In this document: one piece after another, positions 1 to 22,516 of the stretch
Layout of the letters: each line of letters begins with the position of its first letter
Position numbering within the stretch: position 1 is the stretch's first letter
NCBI GenBank assembly: GCA_035623825.1
Contig: DASPSR010000012.1
Coordinates: 1 to 22,516 of the forward strand
From: Nitrospirota bacterium
Lineage (GTDB): Bacteria; Nitrospirota; UBA9217
Length of the DNA stretch: 22,516 bases
Reading direction: 5' to 3'
Notes under the pieces: model-generated
Seen by the model: only the letters and a program-made list of their open reading frames with translations
The model's database searches: none
Told to the model about the DNA's origin: nothing
Made by a program: the position numbers and the translations under genes

Positions 1-714
1 GGTCTGGGTGTAGTACTCTGACCTGTTGTAGCTGCTGTTCGCGATTACGACCGGCGGGTTGCTGGTGAAGGTCACGCCGTCAACGGTGTCGCCACCGCCA
101 CGGAGCAGGCGGTAAACGCCAGTCGCCAGATTCTCGGACCCGACAACTGTCGGCTGGGCGCCGTACGAACCGGAGGTCCAGATGGCCTGGCCGGTCTTGC
201 CATATGCGCCCGTCGTCAGATAGCGGCCTTTGCCATGCATGTCATGGCAGCTGGTGCAGGCGAGCTGACCGCCCGGATACGTGCCGCCAGGGGCCGTGAC
301 GTTGGTGGGGTCGGCAACATAAACGCCGCCGCTGTAGCCGGCAGCAATAATGTTATGGCCATGGGTGTCGCCCAGGTCAGTGGTCGCTCCGCCGCGGACC
401 GTGAAGTAATAGCTCTTATGCAGCCAGCCGAAGTCACCACCGGGGCCTTCATTGGCCGGCGGGGTGCCCGCGGGCATGGTTGAATCGGGGCTTGCTACAT
501 GGTAGCTGGACTGACCAGCCGCACCATGGCAGCTCAGACAGGTGGAACTGTCATCGACGGCGATCAACAGGTTGGCATTTGCCGCATTGTGCATCTGATG
601 GCAGCCGACGCACTCGGCGACGCCGCCCGCATGGAACGCGAAGCTGATTCCGCTCAGCCCGAAGACTACCGCGGCTGCAGCGACAAGGATAAGGCTTAAC
701 TTGTAAATCTTCAT
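1..714 (-). CDS. omcS: OmcS-family multiheme c-type cytochrome (nanowire subunit homolog), 3' part beyond window edge
   Basis: Absent from the ORF track; translated by hand from ATG 714 (GGAGG SD at 723-727), open to position 1. Signal peptide, then FHAGGVAECVGCHQMHN...CLSCH...SSYHV...MPAGTPP...PGGDFGW...GHNIIA...TAPGGTYP..QLACTSCHDMHGK...SGSY...GVYRLL...YNRSE..TQT, collinear with Geobacter OmcS as recalled. CxxCH motifs at 598-612, 526-540 and 244-258. Confidence 0.93.
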   Translation of the reverse strand, partial: MKIYKLSLILVAAAAVVFGLSGISFAFHAGGVAECVGCHQMHNAANANLLIAVDDSSTCLSCHGAAGQSSYHVASPDSTMPAGTPPANEGPGGDFGWLHKSYYFTVRGGATTDLGDTHGHNIIAAGYSGGVYVADPTNVTAPGGTYPGGQLACTSCHDMHGKGRYLTTGAYGKTGQAIWTSGSYGAQPTVVGSENLATGVYRLLRGGGDTVDGVTFTSNPPVVIANSSYNRSEYYTQT

Positions 715-742
715 TTTAGAATCCTCCAAATTGATGCTTGAG

Positions 743-822
743 CTCCGGCAGCCCGGCCGTCCCGCTTTCGGGACCCGTTGGCTTTGTGTCCCCGCCTTGC
801 GACGGGTTTACTCTTTTCGGAG
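743..822 (-). ncRNA. GEMM-I (c-di-GMP-I class) riboswitch, A20 variant predicted to sense 3',3'-cyclic AMP-GMP
   Basis: Transcript CUCCGAAAAGAGUAAACCCGUCGCAAGGCGGGGACACAAAGCCAACGGGUCCCGAAAGCGGGACGGCCGGGCUGCCGGAG. P1 is CUCCG/CGGAG; P2 has the AAA/GAC internal loop and a GCAA (GNRA) tetraloop; then the CAAAGCC junction, P3 and the 3' UGCCG. Ends 28 nt upstream of the omcS-like ATG. Confidence 0.93.
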
Positions 823-1004
823 GATAGAGTGTGTCGGCTTGGCCGACATGAGTACAACGTGCTTCTTGCTGCTTACTACTGCCCACTTTTTTTATTCTAT
901 TCCGGCTTTCACCTCCTCCATTACGAATGCTCCTTTCATGTGTTTCTCAGTTCAGTCTATTCCTGTAATTTTGTGGTGATACATTATTTTATATTACTAT
1001 AGTA

Positions 1005-1020
1005 TGCATTCTTCATACCA
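1005..1020 (-). promoter_or_regulatory. Candidate sigma54 (-24/-12) promoter of the omcS-like gene
   Basis: Minus strand TGGTATGAAGAATGCA has exact GG-N10-GC spacing and resembles the TGGCAC-N5-TTGC consensus; predicted start site near 994. Confidence 0.7.
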
Positions 1021-1038
1021 TAATAATAAGTCTTGTAA

Positions 1039-1051
1039 AATCAGTGTGTTA
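1039..1051. promoter_or_regulatory. Candidate IHF binding site
   Basis: AATCAGTGTGTTA matches WATCAR-N4-TTR in AT-rich DNA, about 50 bp upstream of the predicted sigma54 start site. Confidence 0.55.
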
Positions 1052-1083
1052 ATTATTTTAATGCGTTAAAACTTAGAAAAACA

Positions 1084-1119
1084 TGGGCAAATAGGCCATA
1101 TAAATAGGCGATATGACCA
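1084..1119. promoter_or_regulatory. Candidate tandem enhancer (bEBP) sites
   Basis: Two similar imperfect palindromes, TGGGCAAATAGGCCA (1084-1098) and TAGGCGATATGACCA (1105-1119), 21 bp apart, about -90 to -125 from the predicted start site. Confidence 0.4.
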
Positions 1120-1713
1120 AAAGTATTATAGAATTTATCAGTATAGAGTTTATGTTAATTATCAGATAGATATAGAATTTCAATGAAAAGTTACAGAAAA
1201 GGCGCACGCTGAGAAGAGTTAGACTTAAATCTTCGAGTCAATTACCGGGATATAACAAGTCAACTAATAAGCTTCTTTATTTGCTGCTGGGTATATTCTT
1301 TCCGCAGCAACGGCAACAGAACGTTTTTTTTGCAAGTAGAATGATGAGAGGAAAGACGAGTCTAAAATAGGTGATTGCAGTAGAAGACGAACTGGAACGG
1401 TACATCTGTCATGTTCAATTTATTTTTCAACTTGCCATTAGACCACACCGTCCATGAAGAGTTAATCGCCCGGAAGGCGATGACTTTCACGAGGGAGCTA
1501 CCCCCTTTCATCAAGAACAGCTTGCCACATCATCTTTTAGCTTCATCAGGAAACGCTTTAGACCATGGCTAGACAAGCATTGGTTAATCTATTTGCTCTT
1601 TGTGTGGCAACATTTGTGCGGATGGGTCAAGGAGCGCATCGAAGGCCTAACTGCGGATCTTGGCTTTTGCGAATATGTATTAAGAAACAATTTCTTCAGG
1701 TGAAGCACTCAGG

Positions 1714-4127: not shown

Positions 4128-5513
4128 TCATAAATCTAAATCCGGCTTCTCCTTGAGAGTCCCAAGCCGTTCACGGACAAGTCTGATGTGCATGCGCAAC
4201 GTATACACCTGGTTCGCGTAGAAAAGAGGTACACGGAGACGGCTCGCCTTCTCCTCAAGCCGATCAAGCCATTCGCTGAGATCGCCAATGTTTCGTCCTG
4301 CAGCTCTGTTTTCCAGGTCTTTCTCAAGGGATCTCAATTCACCGTATAGCCGGTTGATCCGCCACCGAATTTCCATTGCGTATAGTCCCGGCATAAACCT
4401 CAATAAAGGATAGAAAACGCCGATCAGCGGAATGAGCAGGATGATCAGCCGGTCTATCATCACTGCCATCCAGAAAGGAAGGTGACGCTGGAGGAAAGGA
4501 CGCCCCGACCTGTAGAATTGGCGGGCATTATCGCTCAGGGGAAGGTCGATCGATTCTGCGGCTGGAAACTGTCCAGCTTTTTGAAAGATACCGGGTCCGG
4601 AATGGATCTGCTGCGCAGCATCGAGCAGCAAGTACTGGATTGCCGGATGCAGGTCCTTACGCACAACCAGGCTGGCCTTTGGCGCAAACAGGATGACGTC
4701 TTTGGGCGGCAGGTTCTTCGCCAGATCGCCAACACCGGCGGGTACCGTCAGCTTGTTCAAAAAAGGATACAGTGCAACATAAGCATCTGTACGAGGGAAG
4801 CTCACGAGATCGATGCGCTCGTCAGAAATAAGCCGCCGAACTATTGGAGAGTCCCAGGAGGTCATCATGAACGCGGCATCTATCTTGCCCCGGAGCAGCT
4901 TTTCGCCTGCCTCCCGGTGTGGAAGTGAAAGCAATTGCGCGAAACTCTTGTCGATACCGTTCCGGGTGAGAAGTTCAAGCGCGATCGCCCTGGTGCCGCT
5001 GCCTTCGGGTCCGATCGATATTCTCCGACCTTTCAAGAACTCTAATCCCTTTCCCTGCATGAACTTGACATCTAGGTTTCTGCCTCGTATGGCCCCTCGA
5101 TAAAAGAACCAGAGGGGCTCATAGAATACCGTGCCGAGAGACTCAAGATCAGGGGATTCCCGCTCATTCGTTATGCCTCCCTGTAGAAGACCAACCTCGA
5201 CGCGTGACTTTGGGTCACGCAACCGTGCCAGGTTCTCCACAGCTCCGCCGGTCGAGAGTAGCTGAAGTTTGATTCCGTCCCGCGCTAGCAGTTCTTGATA
5301 GCGTTTCCCCATCTCATAAAATCCGCCGCCCTCAGGCCCGGTGGCCATGATTACGCTGCGCGGCGGCAACGGACGCAGCGCAGCGATGGCCACCCATAGA
5401 AGAGCAACAATGATCAATAGCCCGGCAATCACAGGGATTATGAGATTAACGCGACGAGCGCGGAAATAATCACCGATATTCCTGCTGCGAGTTCTTTTGT
5501 CTAATGAATCCAT
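4128..5513 (-). CDS. TAXI-family TRAP solute-binding protein with N-terminal anchor and C-terminal TM/coiled-coil extension
   Basis: MATGPEGGGF, STGGAVENL, FYEPLW and ISIGPEGSGT motifs; hydrophobic segments at the N-terminus and near residues 346-375. Confidence 0.88.
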   Translation of the reverse strand: MDSLDKRTRSRNIGDYFRARRVNLIIPVIAGLLIIVALLWVAIAALRPLPPRSVIMATGPEGGGFYEMGKRYQELLARDGIKLQLLSTGGAVENLARLRDPKSRVEVGLLQGGITNERESPDLESLGTVFYEPLWFFYRGAIRGRNLDVKFMQGKGLEFLKGRRISIGPEGSGTRAIALELLTRNGIDKSFAQLLSLPHREAGEKLLRGKIDAAFMMTSWDSPIVRRLISDERIDLVSFPRTDAYVALYPFLNKLTVPAGVGDLAKNLPPKDVILFAPKASLVVRKDLHPAIQYLLLDAAQQIHSGPGIFQKAGQFPAAESIDLPLSDNARQFYRSGRPFLQRHLPFWMAVMIDRLIILLIPLIGVFYPLLRFMPGLYAMEIRWRINRLYGELRSLEKDLENRAAGRNIGDLSEWLDRLEEKASRLRVPLFYANQVYTLRMHIRLVRERLGTLKEKPDLDL

Positions 5514-5599
5514 AGTCTGTCTCCTGGGAATGGATACTGCGGAAAGGCCGGCTCAGAGGCGTATCTTTGCACAACCTTTAAATGCCACGCTTTAAGTGT

Positions 5600-7150
5600 T
5601 CATTCATTGCGATCCTCCACTTCATGCTTTGCGCTCCGGGCCATTTTTACCAGTTCCCAGTACGGAGGCGCATATCCTCTCTCGCTTTGGAACAACGCGG
5701 CCTTCTTGCTGAGACGTGCTGCTATGTCGTCGTGCCTTTTTGAGAACCAGACGTTCCGCAGCGCCGCAGTGGATGACATCCCCTCCGGAACCGGTCCGAC
5801 CTTCCCCATCAGGTTCAGGACCGCGCTGTACGCTTTTGCCAGCCTGACCACGGGCAAAAGATACCACTGGTATTCGAGCTTCTCTCCCTTTTCCGCCCCT
5901 TCGAGCATCACATCTGTAACGGCATTGTCATAATGGTCTTTCTTGAGCGTTTCAAGGTCTCGCCACTCCGCGACCACGGTGAGTTGTGGGTCGTACTCGA
6001 GGTCCGACGGCTCCTGCGTCTCGAAATAGCGGACGCCGAAATCGCTCAGCCATCTCTGCAGACCGGGCGAAGAAATATGGGATATCCCCATCCAGAGCTT
6101 GACGCCGAAGGGCTCGTAAGCGGCAGAAGCGACTTCCGAGCAGAAAAGTTTCGAGTGCTCGTGATAGTTCATCTCGAAGTCATAGGGGATATGTTTCTTT
6201 GTTGCATTATTGTACGCAAGCAGGGCGGCTTTATGCGGGATAATCGGTTCCTTCTTGAGCTGCGGCAGGTCCGCTCGTAGACGCAGCAGCATGACGCGAA
6301 GTTTCTTGTCTTCGAGATACTGCTCAACAGTAGAGACCACTACGCCCCTTTCTATATGCGCCTCGACGATGTTCGCTGTGCGTGTATCTGGATTGACAAA
6401 CACGAAGGCTATGTGCGAGAAGTTGCCTGGATAATCACTCCCGCGGGAAATGAGAGCCGATGTAGGAGCGCCGCCACGGGACACCAGGATATCGCCGCTG
6501 TGGATGTGCACACCCCGGACATCTGCCCAGGGTGTCTGGGAGGGCTCATCCTTTCCCGGAACAAAGTCCGGGACAGTGCCTGCTGGGGTCTGCAGAATGA
6601 CCTCCTCCGCTGCGGCGCGCGATCCATACAGAAGCCGGTATAAGGTATTTCTTGCTGTTAGTGAATTCATGTCCCAGTCTTCGGACCGTTTCTTGATAAC
6701 GGTACGCATATCGGCGATCATTCGGATGTAGTCCATAACTTGCTTATCGCAGGCGCTGACAACAGGACCCATCTCGAACACAAGCTTCTCAAGATCGCGG
6801 AATACCGGGTCTTCAGGGCCTGCAGGCGTTTTATCGATCTCGTACAGAATTCTTTTCACCCTCTGGAATTTCATGGGGAGAGCAGGTACGGCTTTCGTAC
6901 ACCCCCCCTGCTTCAGTGTCCGATATGTGGCTTCCAGAGCATTCCAGTATTCGTCTTGGTTCCATTCAAACGGCTGTTTCTGTGCGATTCCGCCAACGGG
7001 GGGAACGTTTACCCGTTCCCTCGATGGAATGAGCAGAATAATGTAGATAACGAGAAGTATGGCAACAACCCATCCGATGCGGTTCAGGATCTTCCCCGGC
7101 CGTTTCATTCCGGTTGAAGGTGATGATGGCATAGATTCTCGTTCTTTCAT
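5600..7150 (-). CDS. Membrane-anchored permuted papain-like (YiiX/YebB, NlpC/P60) cysteine hydrolase
   Basis: GDILVSRG...FSHIAFV...IVEAH...PYDF...LFCSEV: His precedes Cys, the permuted order; N-terminal TM helix. Confidence 0.85.
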   Translation of the reverse strand: MKERESMPSSPSTGMKRPGKILNRIGWVVAILLVIYIILLIPSRERVNVPPVGGIAQKQPFEWNQDEYWNALEATYRTLKQGGCTKAVPALPMKFQRVKRILYEIDKTPAGPEDPVFRDLEKLVFEMGPVVSACDKQVMDYIRMIADMRTVIKKRSEDWDMNSLTARNTLYRLLYGSRAAAEEVILQTPAGTVPDFVPGKDEPSQTPWADVRGVHIHSGDILVSRGGAPTSALISRGSDYPGNFSHIAFVFVNPDTRTANIVEAHIERGVVVSTVEQYLEDKKLRVMLLRLRADLPQLKKEPIIPHKAALLAYNNATKKHIPYDFEMNYHEHSKLFCSEVASAAYEPFGVKLWMGISHISSPGLQRWLSDFGVRYFETQEPSDLEYDPQLTVVAEWRDLETLKKDHYDNAVTDVMLEGAEKGEKLEYQWYLLPVVRLAKAYSAVLNLMGKVGPVPEGMSSTAALRNVWFSKRHDDIAARLSKKAALFQSERGYAPPYWELVKMARSAKHEVEDRNE

Positions 7151-7227: not shown

Positions 7228-9456
7228 CTAATAGAGCTCTCTCCCGAGATAGAAGTATAATGTGGTAGTCCCTCCTGAACCGTTGCCGAGGGCCAGATAG
7301 AGAGGTCCTAGGACCGTGTCGTAGCCTATGAATACGCTCCCGCCTGTCCGGATATCATTGAATGAAGCGGTCTGCCCTACCTGCCACACATTGCCCGCCT
7401 CGAGAGAGGCCCCCATATAGAAGGATCCGAGCAGTGATTGGCTTGCCCTCCAGTAAGCTATCAGCCTTCCCAGTCCCATCTGCTGACCACGAAGCTGGTC
7501 CTGTTGATAACCAGAGAGGCGCAAAAAGCCGCCGAGGGTGAACTGGTCGTAGAAAGGGATCGTACTGTTGATATACGATGCGAACTCGGCGCTTGCGAGC
7601 AGCGTATATGACCGGTATGTGAAAGCCTTGATGAATTGGGCATCGATCTTCTGGTACCGATCGTCTGCTCCCAACCCTGGCATTGAATTGTAGTAATCGA
7701 TCCGCCCGGCATATCCCGAGTGGGGAAAATTCACATTATCGAGTTGATCTATGTGCACACGCCCCTCAAGCGCTCCGAGGTCAAAGTCCTGCCGGGGCGT
7801 GCCTGGCGTGCCTTTATAGAGAGTCTGACGTTCTTCCCCGCCCTCATATCCCAGTCTGATCTCGCCGTATTCCCGGAGGTCGATCCCGAAATCGGCTCCT
7901 GCCGCGGTCTTTTGCAGCCTGTACTCGGAGATGATATCGTTCCCCTGGTAGATATTGACATACTGCCGGTCCCACGTGAAACGGGGCGCTACGAAGTATG
8001 CACGGGAAGATGTCAATGGCTGATAGAACTCAGACAGGATCCGTTGGTGGCTGCCGAACTGGACCTGGTTCTTCCATTCAGCACCAAGCCGGTTCAACCA
8101 TCGCATGGTGTAGTCGCCAAGAATGTTATAATTAGTATCACCTGTGCTGGAACTCGATAAACTGAGGCCCCAACGGAAATAATTCGGCCCCCAGGATTTT
8201 TCCTGTGTGTGTATTTTCATATCATAGACATCATCCGTACGCTTGGCCTCGAGGGCCACGCGCTCAAAATCCTCCATACCATAGACTATTCCGACATCGT
8301 GCTTCAGCTTTTCAACGCTGATCTCCTGACCCGGTTCGATCTTGAGCTTGCTCTGGACGGTTTCTGGCGAGACGCGCGAGAGCCCTTCGACGGTGACGGT
8401 GCCGACCCGAACGGTCTTTGGCGGAACGCGCTGATGTTTATTGCGATAGGGAGCGTATTCCTGCTCCGAGACCGACAGCCTGCGAAGTTCATCCTCTTTC
8501 TCACGGGCGGCCTTCAGTCCTCGTTCGATCGCCTCCTTTCCCCTCTTGAAATCACCTGAGGATATGTTGCCAAGGTCAGGACGGATGAAGACATCTTGCT
8601 TCTCGAGCTGGTCGATCTGGGCCTTGACGTTCTCCTTGATCATGATGTCCACCATCTGGTTCATGATCGACATCGGTGACCCGAGTTCCTCCCTCGAAGG
8701 CAGGTTCTGTCCTACGTCCACGGCGATGATGATATCTGCACCCATGGACCGGACGACATCAACAGGCAAATTTCGAACGATCCCGCCGTCAGCGAGATAA
8801 CGGCCGTTAACCTCCACGGGCGGGAACACGCCTGGCACGGACATGCTCGCCCTTGCCGCATCGGCGAGTCTTCCGCTTTTAAGTACGACCGTATCGCCAG
8901 TCTCGAGGTCCGAGGCCACTGCGCGGTACGGCGTCGGCAGCTTGTCGAAGTCCGTTATGTCCGACACCGGCATGAGGATGGTCTCGAACAGGAGCCCTAT
9001 CTTCTGGCCCGCAATGACGGCCCGCGGCGTTCTCAGGCCGCCATTCTTGATACCCAGTTCCAGACCAGACAGGATCGTAAAGTCATCCCGCTTGCGCCAG
9101 AAGTCGATCTCCGAGCGTGGCGGACTGTCTGAGAAGAGATCGTCCCAATCAAGTGAGGTCACGATCTGTTCGATCTCTTCGGGAGACATGCCTGAAGCAT
9201 ACATGCTCGCAACCAAGGCGCCCATACTTGTGCCGCCTATGTAGTCAATCGGGACCTTCAGCTCTTCGAGCAACTTCAGCACGCCGATGTGAGCCGCGCC
9301 CTTGGCGCCTCCGCCGCCGAGGACCAATCCGATACGGGGCCGCTTCGGCTGCTCCGCGGCGTAGGACGGGCCTGGCAGAATACCGGTTATTGCCAGCCCG
9401 AGGAGAAGCATTAAAACGCACAGAATTCGAATCTGTGCAAGGGTCCTTTCCTCCAT
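7228..9456 (-). CDS. plpD: Patatin-POTRA-Omp85 barrel protein (PlpD-like type Vd autotransporter phospholipase)
   Basis: GGGGAKG, GTSMG and DGG patatin motifs; POTRA-like middle region; Omp85-type FTLGG..RLSGY and YDTVLGPLYL. GAAGGAG SD before ATG 9456. Confidence 0.9.
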   Translation of the reverse strand: MEERTLAQIRILCVLMLLLGLAITGILPGPSYAAEQPKRPRIGLVLGGGGAKGAAHIGVLKLLEELKVPIDYIGGTSMGALVASMYASGMSPEEIEQIVTSLDWDDLFSDSPPRSEIDFWRKRDDFTILSGLELGIKNGGLRTPRAVIAGQKIGLLFETILMPVSDITDFDKLPTPYRAVASDLETGDTVVLKSGRLADAARASMSVPGVFPPVEVNGRYLADGGIVRNLPVDVVRSMGADIIIAVDVGQNLPSREELGSPMSIMNQMVDIMIKENVKAQIDQLEKQDVFIRPDLGNISSGDFKRGKEAIERGLKAAREKEDELRRLSVSEQEYAPYRNKHQRVPPKTVRVGTVTVEGLSRVSPETVQSKLKIEPGQEISVEKLKHDVGIVYGMEDFERVALEAKRTDDVYDMKIHTQEKSWGPNYFRWGLSLSSSSTGDTNYNILGDYTMRWLNRLGAEWKNQVQFGSHQRILSEFYQPLTSSRAYFVAPRFTWDRQYVNIYQGNDIISEYRLQKTAAGADFGIDLREYGEIRLGYEGGEERQTLYKGTPGTPRQDFDLGALEGRVHIDQLDNVNFPHSGYAGRIDYYNSMPGLGADDRYQKIDAQFIKAFTYRSYTLLASAEFASYINSTIPFYDQFTLGGFLRLSGYQQDQLRGQQMGLGRLIAYWRASQSLLGSFYMGASLEAGNVWQVGQTASFNDIRTGGSVFIGYDTVLGPLYLALGNGSGGTTTLYFYLGRELY

Positions 9457-9554
9457 ATCGGCATTGTCTCCTTCCTGCCATGCTACTACGCCATGTTCTC
9501 GCATGACAAATATGCGCTGATAATCGCGGCGAACTCCGCCGCCCGCATATCGGG

Positions 9555-10493
9555 TCATCTTGCATTCTGATTACTTTTTACGAACTCCATAGTACCGGAA
9601 TCGAGTTTCAGGTTAAGAAAGAGCCTGTCGTTTTTGATAAGATACCCGCCAGCTCTGTTGAGGTCGCGAAGAAACTTACTCTCCAGAGAGCCTTCGGGAC
9701 AGGCGGCCATAGTCGTGTTGGTTATCGTGATAGAGAGCTTGCTGCTGTTCAATGTGAATGACCCCCCGCCCCGATTGCAGTCTCCCCGGACCTCAGCCGT
9801 TCCATCCGATTTAAACTGAATGGTATAACCGGCCGCGTCATCCGGACGGGTCATCGTCGTGCAGTCATTATATCGGGTCCGGACCCATTGCCAGACCGTG
9901 CCGATTATGTCCGGATCCTGCATACCGGCTTGCGCTTCATGCTTCGCCACAAGATGGTCCGCCTGAACCGTGAAACGACGCGTCACCTCGCTCGTCGGAC
10001 AGCACATCGCGTCGCCGGGACCGTGGGCGGTCATGCTCACGATTATCTCGTTATCTTCAATACCGACAGTATGCACCTTAACCCTGTCTCCTAAAAGGAC
10101 GGCATCGTCATATACCCATCCTCTTGGTCTCATTTCGACCAGGGCCAGATCATAGAACATACCGCTGCCGCCGGGGTTGGTCACGAGGACTATTGCTGCG
10201 ATGTTCTTCCCGTTCACCTGTCCGAAAGCGCGTGGGTCTGTCAATCTCACGACCGTCTCGGTTGCGGACCCAGGCGCGGCGGGCCCGCGATATTCTCCGT
10301 TTCTGAGCGTGACAGTCCCCGAAGAAACCCATGATGAGTGAATAGTTATTCCCTCAAGGTCTTTTGCTGCCGGGCCCTGTTCGTCCCCTGCAGAAGCAAT
10401 AGTGGAGATCGCAAAGATAGCAAGGAACAGAAAACAGCTGATGCTGGTAAGCCGCCTGGCTCTGCTTTCCGAAGATCGCTTGTAGTATATCAC
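9555..10493 (-). CDS. Exported protein with an N-terminal CCP-motif domain and a C-terminal META (HslJ-like) domain
   Basis: GTG start with a G-rich SD; signal peptide; NPGGSG and DAMCCP in the first domain; GTVWQW, GDCNRGGGSF and TTMAACP in the META domain. Confidence 0.85.
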   Translation of the reverse strand: MIYYKRSSESRARRLTSISCFLFLAIFAISTIASAGDEQGPAAKDLEGITIHSSWVSSGTVTLRNGEYRGPAAPGSATETVVRLTDPRAFGQVNGKNIAAIVLVTNPGGSGMFYDLALVEMRPRGWVYDDAVLLGDRVKVHTVGIEDNEIIVSMTAHGPGDAMCCPTSEVTRRFTVQADHLVAKHEAQAGMQDPDIIGTVWQWVRTRYNDCTTMTRPDDAAGYTIQFKSDGTAEVRGDCNRGGGSFTLNSSKLSITITNTTMAACPEGSLESKFLRDLNRAGGYLIKNDRLFLNLKLDSGTMEFVKSNQNAR

Positions 10494-22121: not shown

Positions 22122-22516
22122 TCACATGCCCGCACCATGACATTCATGGCATAGCATCTCCTTCCACGCAGTACCGATGTCCACGGGATGGGGATATTTC
22201 ATGACCTGGAACACGGCACGGTCCGGTCTGCCGGCGCCCGCTTCCCCTGCCCGTTCGATCAGGAGATGACAGAGACTGCAGTCACGTGATAGGACCGTTC
22301 CGTCGTCGCTTCGGTGCTTTCCGTCATGACATCGGAAGCAGCCGGGCGAGAATCGGTGCCCCTGGTTGTTTGGAAAGTTTTTCCAGCTGACCTTCATGGA
22401 AGGGTCATAATTTCTGTCATAGGCGCGCTGAAGAGCTCCGATTGCATTAGAGATCGCTGCCTCCCTGTCCGAGGAAAGAGCTGGATATGTTGTCTTATAG
22501 AAATCCCTGATTGACG
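22122..22516 (-). CDS. C-terminus of an ImcH-like / NapC-NirT multiheme cytochrome c, 5' part beyond window edge
   Basis: Frame is open to the window edge: SIRDFYKTTYP...YDRNYDPSMKVSWKNFPNNQGHRFSPGCFRCHDGKH...CSLCH...HPVDIG...CHECH, with three CxxCH motifs. The NNxGH...PGCFRCHDG.H block matches ImcH-like proteins as recalled. Confidence 0.8.
   Translation of the reverse strand, partial: SIRDFYKTTYPALSSDREAAISNAIGALQRAYDRNYDPSMKVSWKNFPNNQGHRFSPGCFRCHDGKHRSDDGTVLSRDCSLCHLLIERAGEAGAGRPDRAVFQVMKYPHPVDIGTAWKEMLCHECHGAGM

Follow-up and report, generated by a model that had tools for sequence, protein, structure and literature searches.

An OmcS-family hexahaem cytochrome gene behind a predicted riboswitch, found as an extra copy in an uncultured Nitrospirota genome

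A gene of the OmcS cytochrome family, truncated by the contig end, opens the stretch of DNA analysed here (the window), which comprises the first 22,516 nucleotides (nt) of contig C26 in the genome of an uncultured Nitrospirota bacterium (67 contigs, 3.24 Mb). On balance we favour the reading that this gene specifies a hexahaem c-type cytochrome, that it is an extra, riboswitch-gated copy and that its product would be a filament subunit. The parts of this reading differ in firmness. Judged by its sequence, the window protein is almost certainly a member of the OmcS family and of a subfamily that we call A; control of the gene by a cyclic-dinucleotide riboswitch is very probable, and polymerisation of a protein of this type is an even call. 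OmcS filaments serve as a model for long-range extracellular electron transfer, and which of the OmcS-like genes in metagenomes encode wires is still unclear.

Results

An OmcS-family cytochrome at the contig end

The open reading frame (ORF) of the cytochrome starts with an ATG at 714-712 on the minus strand and remains open through to window base 1. Behind a predicted signal peptide the mature protein begins with FHAGGVAECVGCHQMHN, and the predicted cleavage leaves Phe1, as in OmcS. In a phmmer search, residues 27-238 of the window protein (212 mature residues) aligned to residues 1-227 of OmcS (PDB 6ef8_A) with an E value of 1.2e-43. The window protein lacks 8 and 6 residues directly after His16 and a further 3 residues past haem motif 2. 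Four of the six distal histidines (H2, H16, H94 and H134) fall within the fragment. A Pfam search of the window protein returned only generic multihaem motifs (PF09699).

An earlier note on this DNA had described the mature N-terminus, the His16 codon at 591-589 and three CxxCH motifs. It had also described an AANAN loop after His16 much shorter than that of OmcS, HGHNI in place of the OmcS KGHNI, and CHDMHG in place of CHDPHG. Translation and the OmcS alignment bear out every one of these sequence statements, including the loop, which is 14 residues shorter; agreement of this extent is far beyond chance.

Three CxxCH motifs are visible in the window copy before the contig ends. For the remainder of the protein we turned to P0122, a full-length protein of 416 residues that is 96% identical to the window protein over 238 residues. 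Residues 27-416 of P0122 aligned to OmcS 1-407 (phmmer, 6ef8_A; E value 2.8e-92), and P0122 contains six CxxCH motifs; a separate piece of the gene on contig C29 of the same genome carries motifs 3-6. An AlphaFold2 model of P0122 (mean predicted local distance difference test score, pLDDT, 76.1) matched 6ef8_A in Foldseek with an E value of 1.6e-33, template modelling (TM) scores of 0.81/0.83 and 46% identity. The search of PDB folds with this model returned nothing besides 6ef8_A at an E value of 0.001 or below. The predicted fold of this stand-in is that of OmcS.

In a set of 236 homologs of 395-470 residues, the number of CxxCH motifs is six in 232 and five in 4. Exactly six histidines outside these motifs are invariant in all 236, namely H2, H16, H94, H134, H240 and H325 (P0122 mature numbering), a number that reads as one distal ligand for each predicted haem. 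No homolog of the 236, from either subfamily, lacks His16, and they include the GSU2501-like type, which has no known filament (PMC12977616). The invariance of His16 across the family means that it is no marker separating wire-formers from other paralogues, and the suggestion that it signals filament competence does not survive.

Subfamily A is separate from the Geobacterales genes

A family tree was built with FastTree from 140 rows, made up of genes of 114 public loci, the pieces from the host genome and two database proteins. The tree, taken as unrooted, split into subfamily A (56 rows) and subfamily B (84 rows) with a support of 100. IQ-TREE, run as a short search under LG+C20+F+G4 with posterior mean site frequencies (PMSF) on 72 hand-picked rows, recovered A versus B as a single branch with a Shimodaira-Hasegawa-like approximate likelihood ratio (SH-aLRT) support of 96. 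The window protein sits inside an all-Nitrospirota clade of 11-12 rows within A (support 100), apart from the group that holds the Geobacterales genes. Hosts of subfamily A include Nitrospirota, Acidobacteriota, Thermodesulfobacteriota, Myxococcota, Rokubacteria, Deferrimicrobia, Bacteroidota and others. Group B contains a paralogue from contig C49 of the host genome, which is sister to Geobacterales genes, together with the remaining Geobacterales genes.

OmcS itself is absent from the tree, and its place on the B side is deduced from phmmer scores (in bits) against 6ef8_A. Of two genes in a Geobacteraceae locus, the upstream one scored 513 and the downstream one 441; the C49 paralogue scored 429 and P0122 scored 313. 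By this measure the window gene is less OmcS-like than the C49 gene of the same genome. Belonging to A and not to B, the window protein appears not to be the orthologue of OmcS (GSU2504).

The linker between haem motifs 1 and 2 follows the same division: it spans 19-21 residues in 50 of the 56 A rows and at least 27 in 74 of the 84 B rows, and its length of 33 in OmcS is deduced from the 14 missing residues. The description of the window protein as divergent and structurally distinct therefore holds in that it belongs to a separate subfamily and has a short loop, and fails in that the short loop is typical of a large subfamily spread over many phyla. HGHNI does not set the protein apart, being the family norm (53/56 A rows and 64/84 B rows) to which the OmcS KGHNI is the exception. 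CHDMHG does stand as a local feature: DMHG occurs in 8/56 A rows and 0/84 B rows, and DPHG is the norm in both (33/56 and 79/84).

The host was identified through RpoB, encoded on contig C63, which is 96% identical to the RpoB of three metagenome-assembled genomes (MAGs) labelled 'Nitrospirota bacterium' and 91% identical to that of a fourth. The MAGs with the closest RpoB are also those with the closest cytochrome genes. This match places the host outside Geobacter, as had been surmised, in an uncultured Nitrospirota lineage; the host had been thought beyond naming from the window, and the marker gene in the rest of the genome supplied the name.

A predicted cyclic-dinucleotide riboswitch upstream of the gene

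The leader of the window gene matches the Rfam GEMM-I-class model RF03167 over its full length, scoring 61.1 bits (gathering score 59; E value 1.9e-12). In the minimum free energy (MFE) fold of 845..700 (-49.7 kcal/mol, z -2.8), the CCUCC at the 5' edge of aptamer helix P1 pairs with the Shine-Dalgarno GGAGG at 727-723, and no intrinsic terminator was found between the aptamer and the ATG. This pairing, together with the lack of a terminator in the leader, points to a translational switch that is turned on by its ligand. In the ligand-free state the 5' strand of P1 would occupy the ribosome-binding site through CCUCC; ligand binding would close P1 and free the site for translation. A promoter scan was uninformative, with 3 sites found and 2.2 expected by chance.

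The aptamer survey covered 20 sources, among them 18 public loci with a subfamily-A gene. Of these 18 loci, 14 have a homologous aptamer immediately before the subfamily-A gene, as does contig C61 of the host genome; it is missing from L011, L012, L013 and L015. A second aptamer, ahead of a gene for an NHL-repeat protein, is present in six close loci. In the loci L001, L003, L004, L005, L007 and L008, from close Nitrospirota MAGs, the aptamers are located at ~1660-1770 and ~2895-2980, and the two genes of each module of NHL gene and cytochrome gene are preceded by aptamers of different sequence types. L006 has tandem aptamers at 2543-2627 and 2749-2833.

As we read the cmscan alignment, the aptamer of the window carries an A at the position equivalent to what we take to be G20. 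It also keeps A at the position that the GGC variant changes, although the GGC variant is its best Rfam model. The A at the G20-equivalent position suggests specificity for cyclic GMP-AMP (cGAMP) or dual specificity for cGAMP and cyclic di-GMP (c-di-GMP). In the Geobacter GEMM-Ib aptamer the A20G change is described as producing c-di-GMP selectivity, the riboswitch of the omcST operon as responding to both cGAMP and c-di-GMP, and omcST expression as 2-3-fold lower without the cGAMP synthase (PMC6456294).

A regex scan of the host genome, which may miss enzymes, found no convincing cGAMP synthase among 12 GGDEF-like domains. The sole candidate with Ser at the selectivity position, a 378-residue protein with a C-terminal GGDEF domain encoded at ~236907-238043 (+) of contig C13 (L285 1408-2544), has a GGEEF motif and was rejected; the combination of the Ser type with GGEEF is described as inactive in PMC6456294.

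The window gene is a dispersed copy duplicated with its leader

Searches of the host genome with tblastn and blastn located near-identical pieces of the gene at contig ends: N-terminal pieces on C26 and C61, and C-terminal pieces on C29, C39, C48 and C49. The C61 piece comprises the leader and the first 11 codons. The C29 piece runs from residue ~145 to the end of the protein and has no frameshift, its DNA being 95% identical to window 1-284; the C39 piece holds the last 135 residues, and C48 and C49 hold the last 27 residues each and share an identical terminal overlap of 141 nt. Identical overlaps at contig ends typically mark branches of a de Bruijn graph. With four distinct 3' flanks and two distinct 5' flanks, the genome probably has several copies of the gene, and near-identical repeats of this kind would have broken the assembly and left the window gene cut by the contig end. 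Contig breaks within the cytochrome gene recur in other assemblies (L269 and L236).

Where C26 1-284 overlaps C29 19179-19462 there are 14 nt differences and 10 amino acid changes in 94 codons, giving a ratio of nonsynonymous to synonymous rates (dN/dS) of 0.83. Relative to P0122 the copies look mosaic, a pattern that gene conversion or diversifying change between copies might have left.

The duplicated unit extends beyond the coding sequence. C61 1-258 corresponds to window 681-917 at 83% identity (blastn), and the metagenome copies L205, L207 and L236 match through window 917 and no further. The window copy is, by these comparisons, a dispersed extra copy that appears to have been duplicated together with a leader of about 200 nt. 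From this leader to the next gene extends a unique AT-rich spacer (918-1713; ~800 nt, G+C ~0.36-0.41), in which no sense-orientation ORF of at least 60 residues was found; the spacer may be a scar left when the copy was inserted here.

Searches for the 3' half of the window copy were negative within their scope. The exact 60-mer from the window end had no match in metagenome contigs. A protein-guided scan reached L269, which is 100% identical over residues 1-95, and this contig likewise ends inside the gene and has different DNA upstream. Logan contigs of four sequencing runs end 3-11 letters from window base 1 and do not reach the 3' half.

Peat metagenomes contain the window stretch. Contigs of two peat DNA runs tile window 1-1700, spacer included, and from position 670 on (contigs 670-781, 759-898 and 888-1700) they show zero differences from the window, in runs that may include the source sample. 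Contigs from two peat metatranscriptome libraries cover 1 to ~700 at an identity of at least 97%, with 8-10 differences, and one library has a contig over 759-917 with no differences. None of the RNA-library contigs lies on 918-1700, an absence of cover that is not evidence. In all four runs, DNA and RNA, the main variant departs from the window sequence at 7-8 positions in the interval 1-441.

An osc-like cluster elsewhere in the host genome

Contigs C61 and C49 carry further genes of interest. C61 encodes a TPR protein and a secreted 330-residue protein with NHL-like repeats by sequence reading (no Pfam match), followed by the riboswitch and the first 11 subfamily-A codons. C49 has on one strand, in this order, the last 27 subfamily-A codons, the group-B paralogue (429 residues; 6176..4887), a YNCE/lactonase-like beta-propeller of 478 residues, a 768-residue protein without a Pfam match and a GNA1162/LpoB-like lipoprotein. 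The two pieces are contiguous in two close MAGs. At its left end, C49 shares 94% DNA identity with C34 1285-1884, which may mean that the cluster is partly duplicated or exists in part as a strain variant.

The order of NHL gene, one to three family cytochromes, beta-propeller, 768-residue protein and lipoprotein recurs across phyla, including in Citrifermentans bremense R1 and other Geobacterales. Among 52 distinct public subfamily-A genes, a beta-propeller gene lies within 3.5 kb downstream on the same strand of 39; it is missing despite room in the flank for 11, and for 2 there is no room. An NHL gene precedes 40 of the 52. Many osc-like clusters have a subfamily-A gene as their sole family cytochrome. 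Apparent NHL-cytochrome fusions in the high-GC loci L011/L156, L161, L028 and L185 were rejected as an artefact of stop-to-stop ORF calling; in L156 the NHL match lies in another frame.

In Geobacter, the eight-gene osc (omcS-companion) block GSU2500-GSU2493 downstream of the omcS-like GSU2501 has been linked to OmcS maturation and secretion, with OscH described as acting in folding, OscE, OscF and OscG in secretion and OscD in morphology (PMC12977616, PMC13194489). From gene order and homology to Geobacterales loci, we infer that the beta-propeller, 768-residue and lipoprotein genes correspond to particular Osc proteins. By the same comparison the host genome possesses dedicated osc-like assembly genes on C61 and C49, and it is the copy spanning C61 and C49, not the window copy, that would stand at the head of the cluster.

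Features and neighbours of the window gene

Table 1. Features in and around the window cytochrome gene (window coordinates).
Feature	Position	Strand	Basis
OmcS-family (subfamily A) hexahaem c-type cytochrome gene, 5' 238 codons	1..714	-	ORF and translation; 3' end cut by contig end
Sec-type signal peptide, 26 codons	637..714	-	Hydrophobic N-terminus; predicted cleavage site, alignment to mature OmcS starting at query residue 27
His16 codon (mature numbering)	589..591	-	Aligned to OmcS His16
CxxCH haem motif 1, CVGCH	598..612	-	Translation, OmcS alignment and homolog alignment
CxxCH haem motif 2, CLSCH	526..540	-	19 residues past motif 1 (33 in OmcS)
CxxCH haem motif 3, CTSCH, followed by DMHG	244..258	-	Translation and OmcS alignment
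Shine-Dalgarno GGAGG	723..727	-	8 nt before the cytochrome ATG
GEMM-I class (c-di-GMP-I clan) riboswitch aptamer	743..821	-	Rfam RF03167, full model 1-80; 28 nt upstream of the ATG
CCUCC, 5' side of aptamer helix P1, candidate anti-Shine-Dalgarno	819..823	-	MFE fold; putative role in switching
Duplicated leader: riboswitch and ~100 nt upstream	715..917	-	blastn; duplicated with the gene in all copies
AT-rich spacer without ORFs	918..1713	.	GC 0.356 for 900-1500, 0.53 for the window; not in other copies

At the opposite contig end, window 22122-22514 (-) encodes the C-terminal 130 residues of another c-type cytochrome with CFRCH, CSLCH and CHECH motifs and weak c7/c3 Pfam matches. Window 7228-9558 (-) encodes a 776-residue protein with patatin-like phospholipase and Omp85 domains, whose neighbours are an outer-membrane protein (OMP) beta-barrel and Phenol_MetA_deg-like and DUF4136 proteins, making this an outer-membrane-rich neighbourhood.

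Discussion

The reading that we favour follows the path of OmcS. The window-type cytochrome would be exported by Sec and receive its haems, would be handled by the osc-like machinery and could then polymerise head to tail, with His16 of one subunit completing the ligation of haem 5 in its neighbour, into an extracellular electron-transfer filament. Polymerisation is plausible because the family has six invariant distal histidines for six haems and because subfamily-A genes lie in osc-like clusters. Going further, one may tentatively see in subfamily A a second class of OmcS-type nanowire that differs in structure, its loop being trimmed beside the cross-subunit histidine. In anoxic soils this class would be the main extracellular wire of uncultured bacteria from Nitrospirota, Acidobacteriota, Desulfobulbia and other groups, amplified in the present lineage as riboswitch-gated copies so that a cyclic dinucleotide, possibly cGAMP, would tune the amount of subunit. 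We judge this broader proposal less likely than not.

Several observations weigh against the reading as a whole. With 14 residues fewer than in OmcS, the loop by His16 could alter the subunit interface or do away with it. Among the Geobacter members of the family only OmcS is known as a wire (PMC12977616). There is no solved structure of a subfamily-A protein, 6ef8/6nef being the sole PDB sequence match of both the window protein and P0122, and no cultured strain was noticed among the record titles of the 52 public subfamily-A genes. As for the window copy in particular, the evidence for six haems and an unbroken frame comes only from close relatives and from the other copies in the genome. 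The 22.5 kb of the window contain no NHL, beta-propeller, 768-residue or lipoprotein gene. At the orthologous positions in 3-4 close MAGs, located through relatives of the neighbouring 282-residue ORF, there is no cytochrome gene within 1.5 kb on each side. The aptamer match lies only 2 bits above the gathering score. The RNA-library contigs, with their 8-10 differences, may derive from a sister copy and cannot prove transcription.

Some of these points fit another role for the protein, that of a non-polymerising hexahaem electron carrier of the periplasm or cell surface in which His16 ligates a haem of the same molecule or of a hetero-partner. Such a carrier would match what may hold for Geobacter OmcT, OmcJ and GSU2501. 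We judge it somewhat unlikely. The trimmed loop and the separation of the window copy from osc-like genes are in its favour, and His16, invariant in all subfamilies, cannot tell wire-formers from others. It has to account, however, for the match of exactly six invariant non-motif histidines to six haems: if the OmcS arrangement holds, a monomer would be left with a haem without a second ligand unless a neighbour gives its His16. The osc-like cluster in the host genome, and the standing of subfamily-A genes as the sole family cytochrome in such clusters of many phyla, also speak for assembly into a filament.

Two further alternatives concern the window copy itself. It could be a decaying duplicate, a pseudogene whose 3' half has been lost or broken, and the unrecovered 3' half, the lack of the NHL partner gene that precedes most copies and a position that is not conserved in close MAGs would all agree with this. 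The dN/dS of 0.83 against the C29 copy over the 94-codon overlap also points that way, on a basis of only 14 differences. Against seven relatives, however, dN/dS of the window fragment is 0.19-0.31, which argues against an old pseudogene, and there are zero amino acid differences from L269 over 95 codons. The 238 codons contain no stop and none of the conserved Cys and His residues is missing from the fragment, both the riboswitch and the ribosome-binding site are undamaged, and the recurrence of contig breaks at this gene in L269 and L236 is what a repeat, not decay, would produce. We regard decay as improbable. Still less credible is an assembly chimera in which unique upstream DNA and a cytochrome fragment were wrongly joined through a repeat or strain mixture. 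Such an error is easily made where a MAG has 67 contigs and the gene is present in several near-identical copies, and the main variant of all four runs departs from the window within 1-441; the difference-free tiling of the junction by the DNA-run contigs nevertheless counts against it, as weak independent support given that these runs may include the source sample.

Set beside OmcS (GSU2504; filament structures PDB 6EF8/6NEF), the window-type protein is likewise hexahaem, colinear from residue 1 to the C-terminus as judged from P0122, and has the same signal-peptide junction. The motif cysteines and histidines and the six distal histidines including His16 are kept in its family, and a GEMM-I riboswitch lies upstream, as in the omcST operon (PMC6456294). 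It differs from OmcS in belonging to A and not B, in being 14 residues shorter from His16 to motif 2 and 3 shorter after motif 2, in having HGHNI and DMHG where OmcS has KGHNI and DPHG, and in its Nitrospirota host. The window gene is also not next to osc genes. We take the cross-subunit histidine of OmcS to be His16 and its target to be haem 5. Ligation of a haem by a histidine of the adjoining subunit is described for OmcS, and is a trait of OmcE and archaeal cytochrome filaments as well (PMC9473688). A relationship to OmcE or the archaeal filaments was not detected in the PDB sequence and fold searches, which returned only OmcS.

The GSU2501/OscC type, whose gene immediately precedes the eight-gene osc block, belongs to the same family, and the host genome has such a gene on C49, followed by the beta-propeller, 768-residue and lipoprotein genes; its sisters on the tree are the Geobacterales genes that occupy this position. 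The window gene differs in that it corresponds to the variable 'upstream' cytochrome, which is OmcS or OmcT in Geobacter and an A member in Nitrospirota, and in that it stands alone. Its aptamer shares the Rfam clan of the Geobacter GEMM-I/GEMM-Ib riboswitches and their place before an OmcS-family gene; it differs from them in its Nitrospirota host and in a predicted expression platform that is translational and not a terminator.

The window gene is a fairly ordinary member of a large, widespread family and no special new nanowire. OmcS homologs outside Geobacter are in print (Portela et al. 2024, PMC10954620), and OmcS and Nitrospirota are mentioned together in the literature, including in PMC13712944. 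What the present analysis adds is modest: the A/B split, the amplified riboswitch-gated copies in one lineage of Nitrospirota and the aptamer's A-for-G change. Shen et al. 2025 reportedly deals with a widespread osc machinery and may bear on these additions.

For the family, these results mean that His16 and HGHNI, being family-wide, have no discriminating power as signatures of wires. They also mean that osc-like clusters of many uncultured phyla have as their resident cytochrome a member of the large short-loop subfamily A, which stands apart from the Geobacter proteins. Control of such genes by cyclic-dinucleotide riboswitches very probably extends to Nitrospirota. Given the published widespread OmcS homologs and osc clusters these findings are unsurprising, and they make subfamily A a sensible target for structure work.

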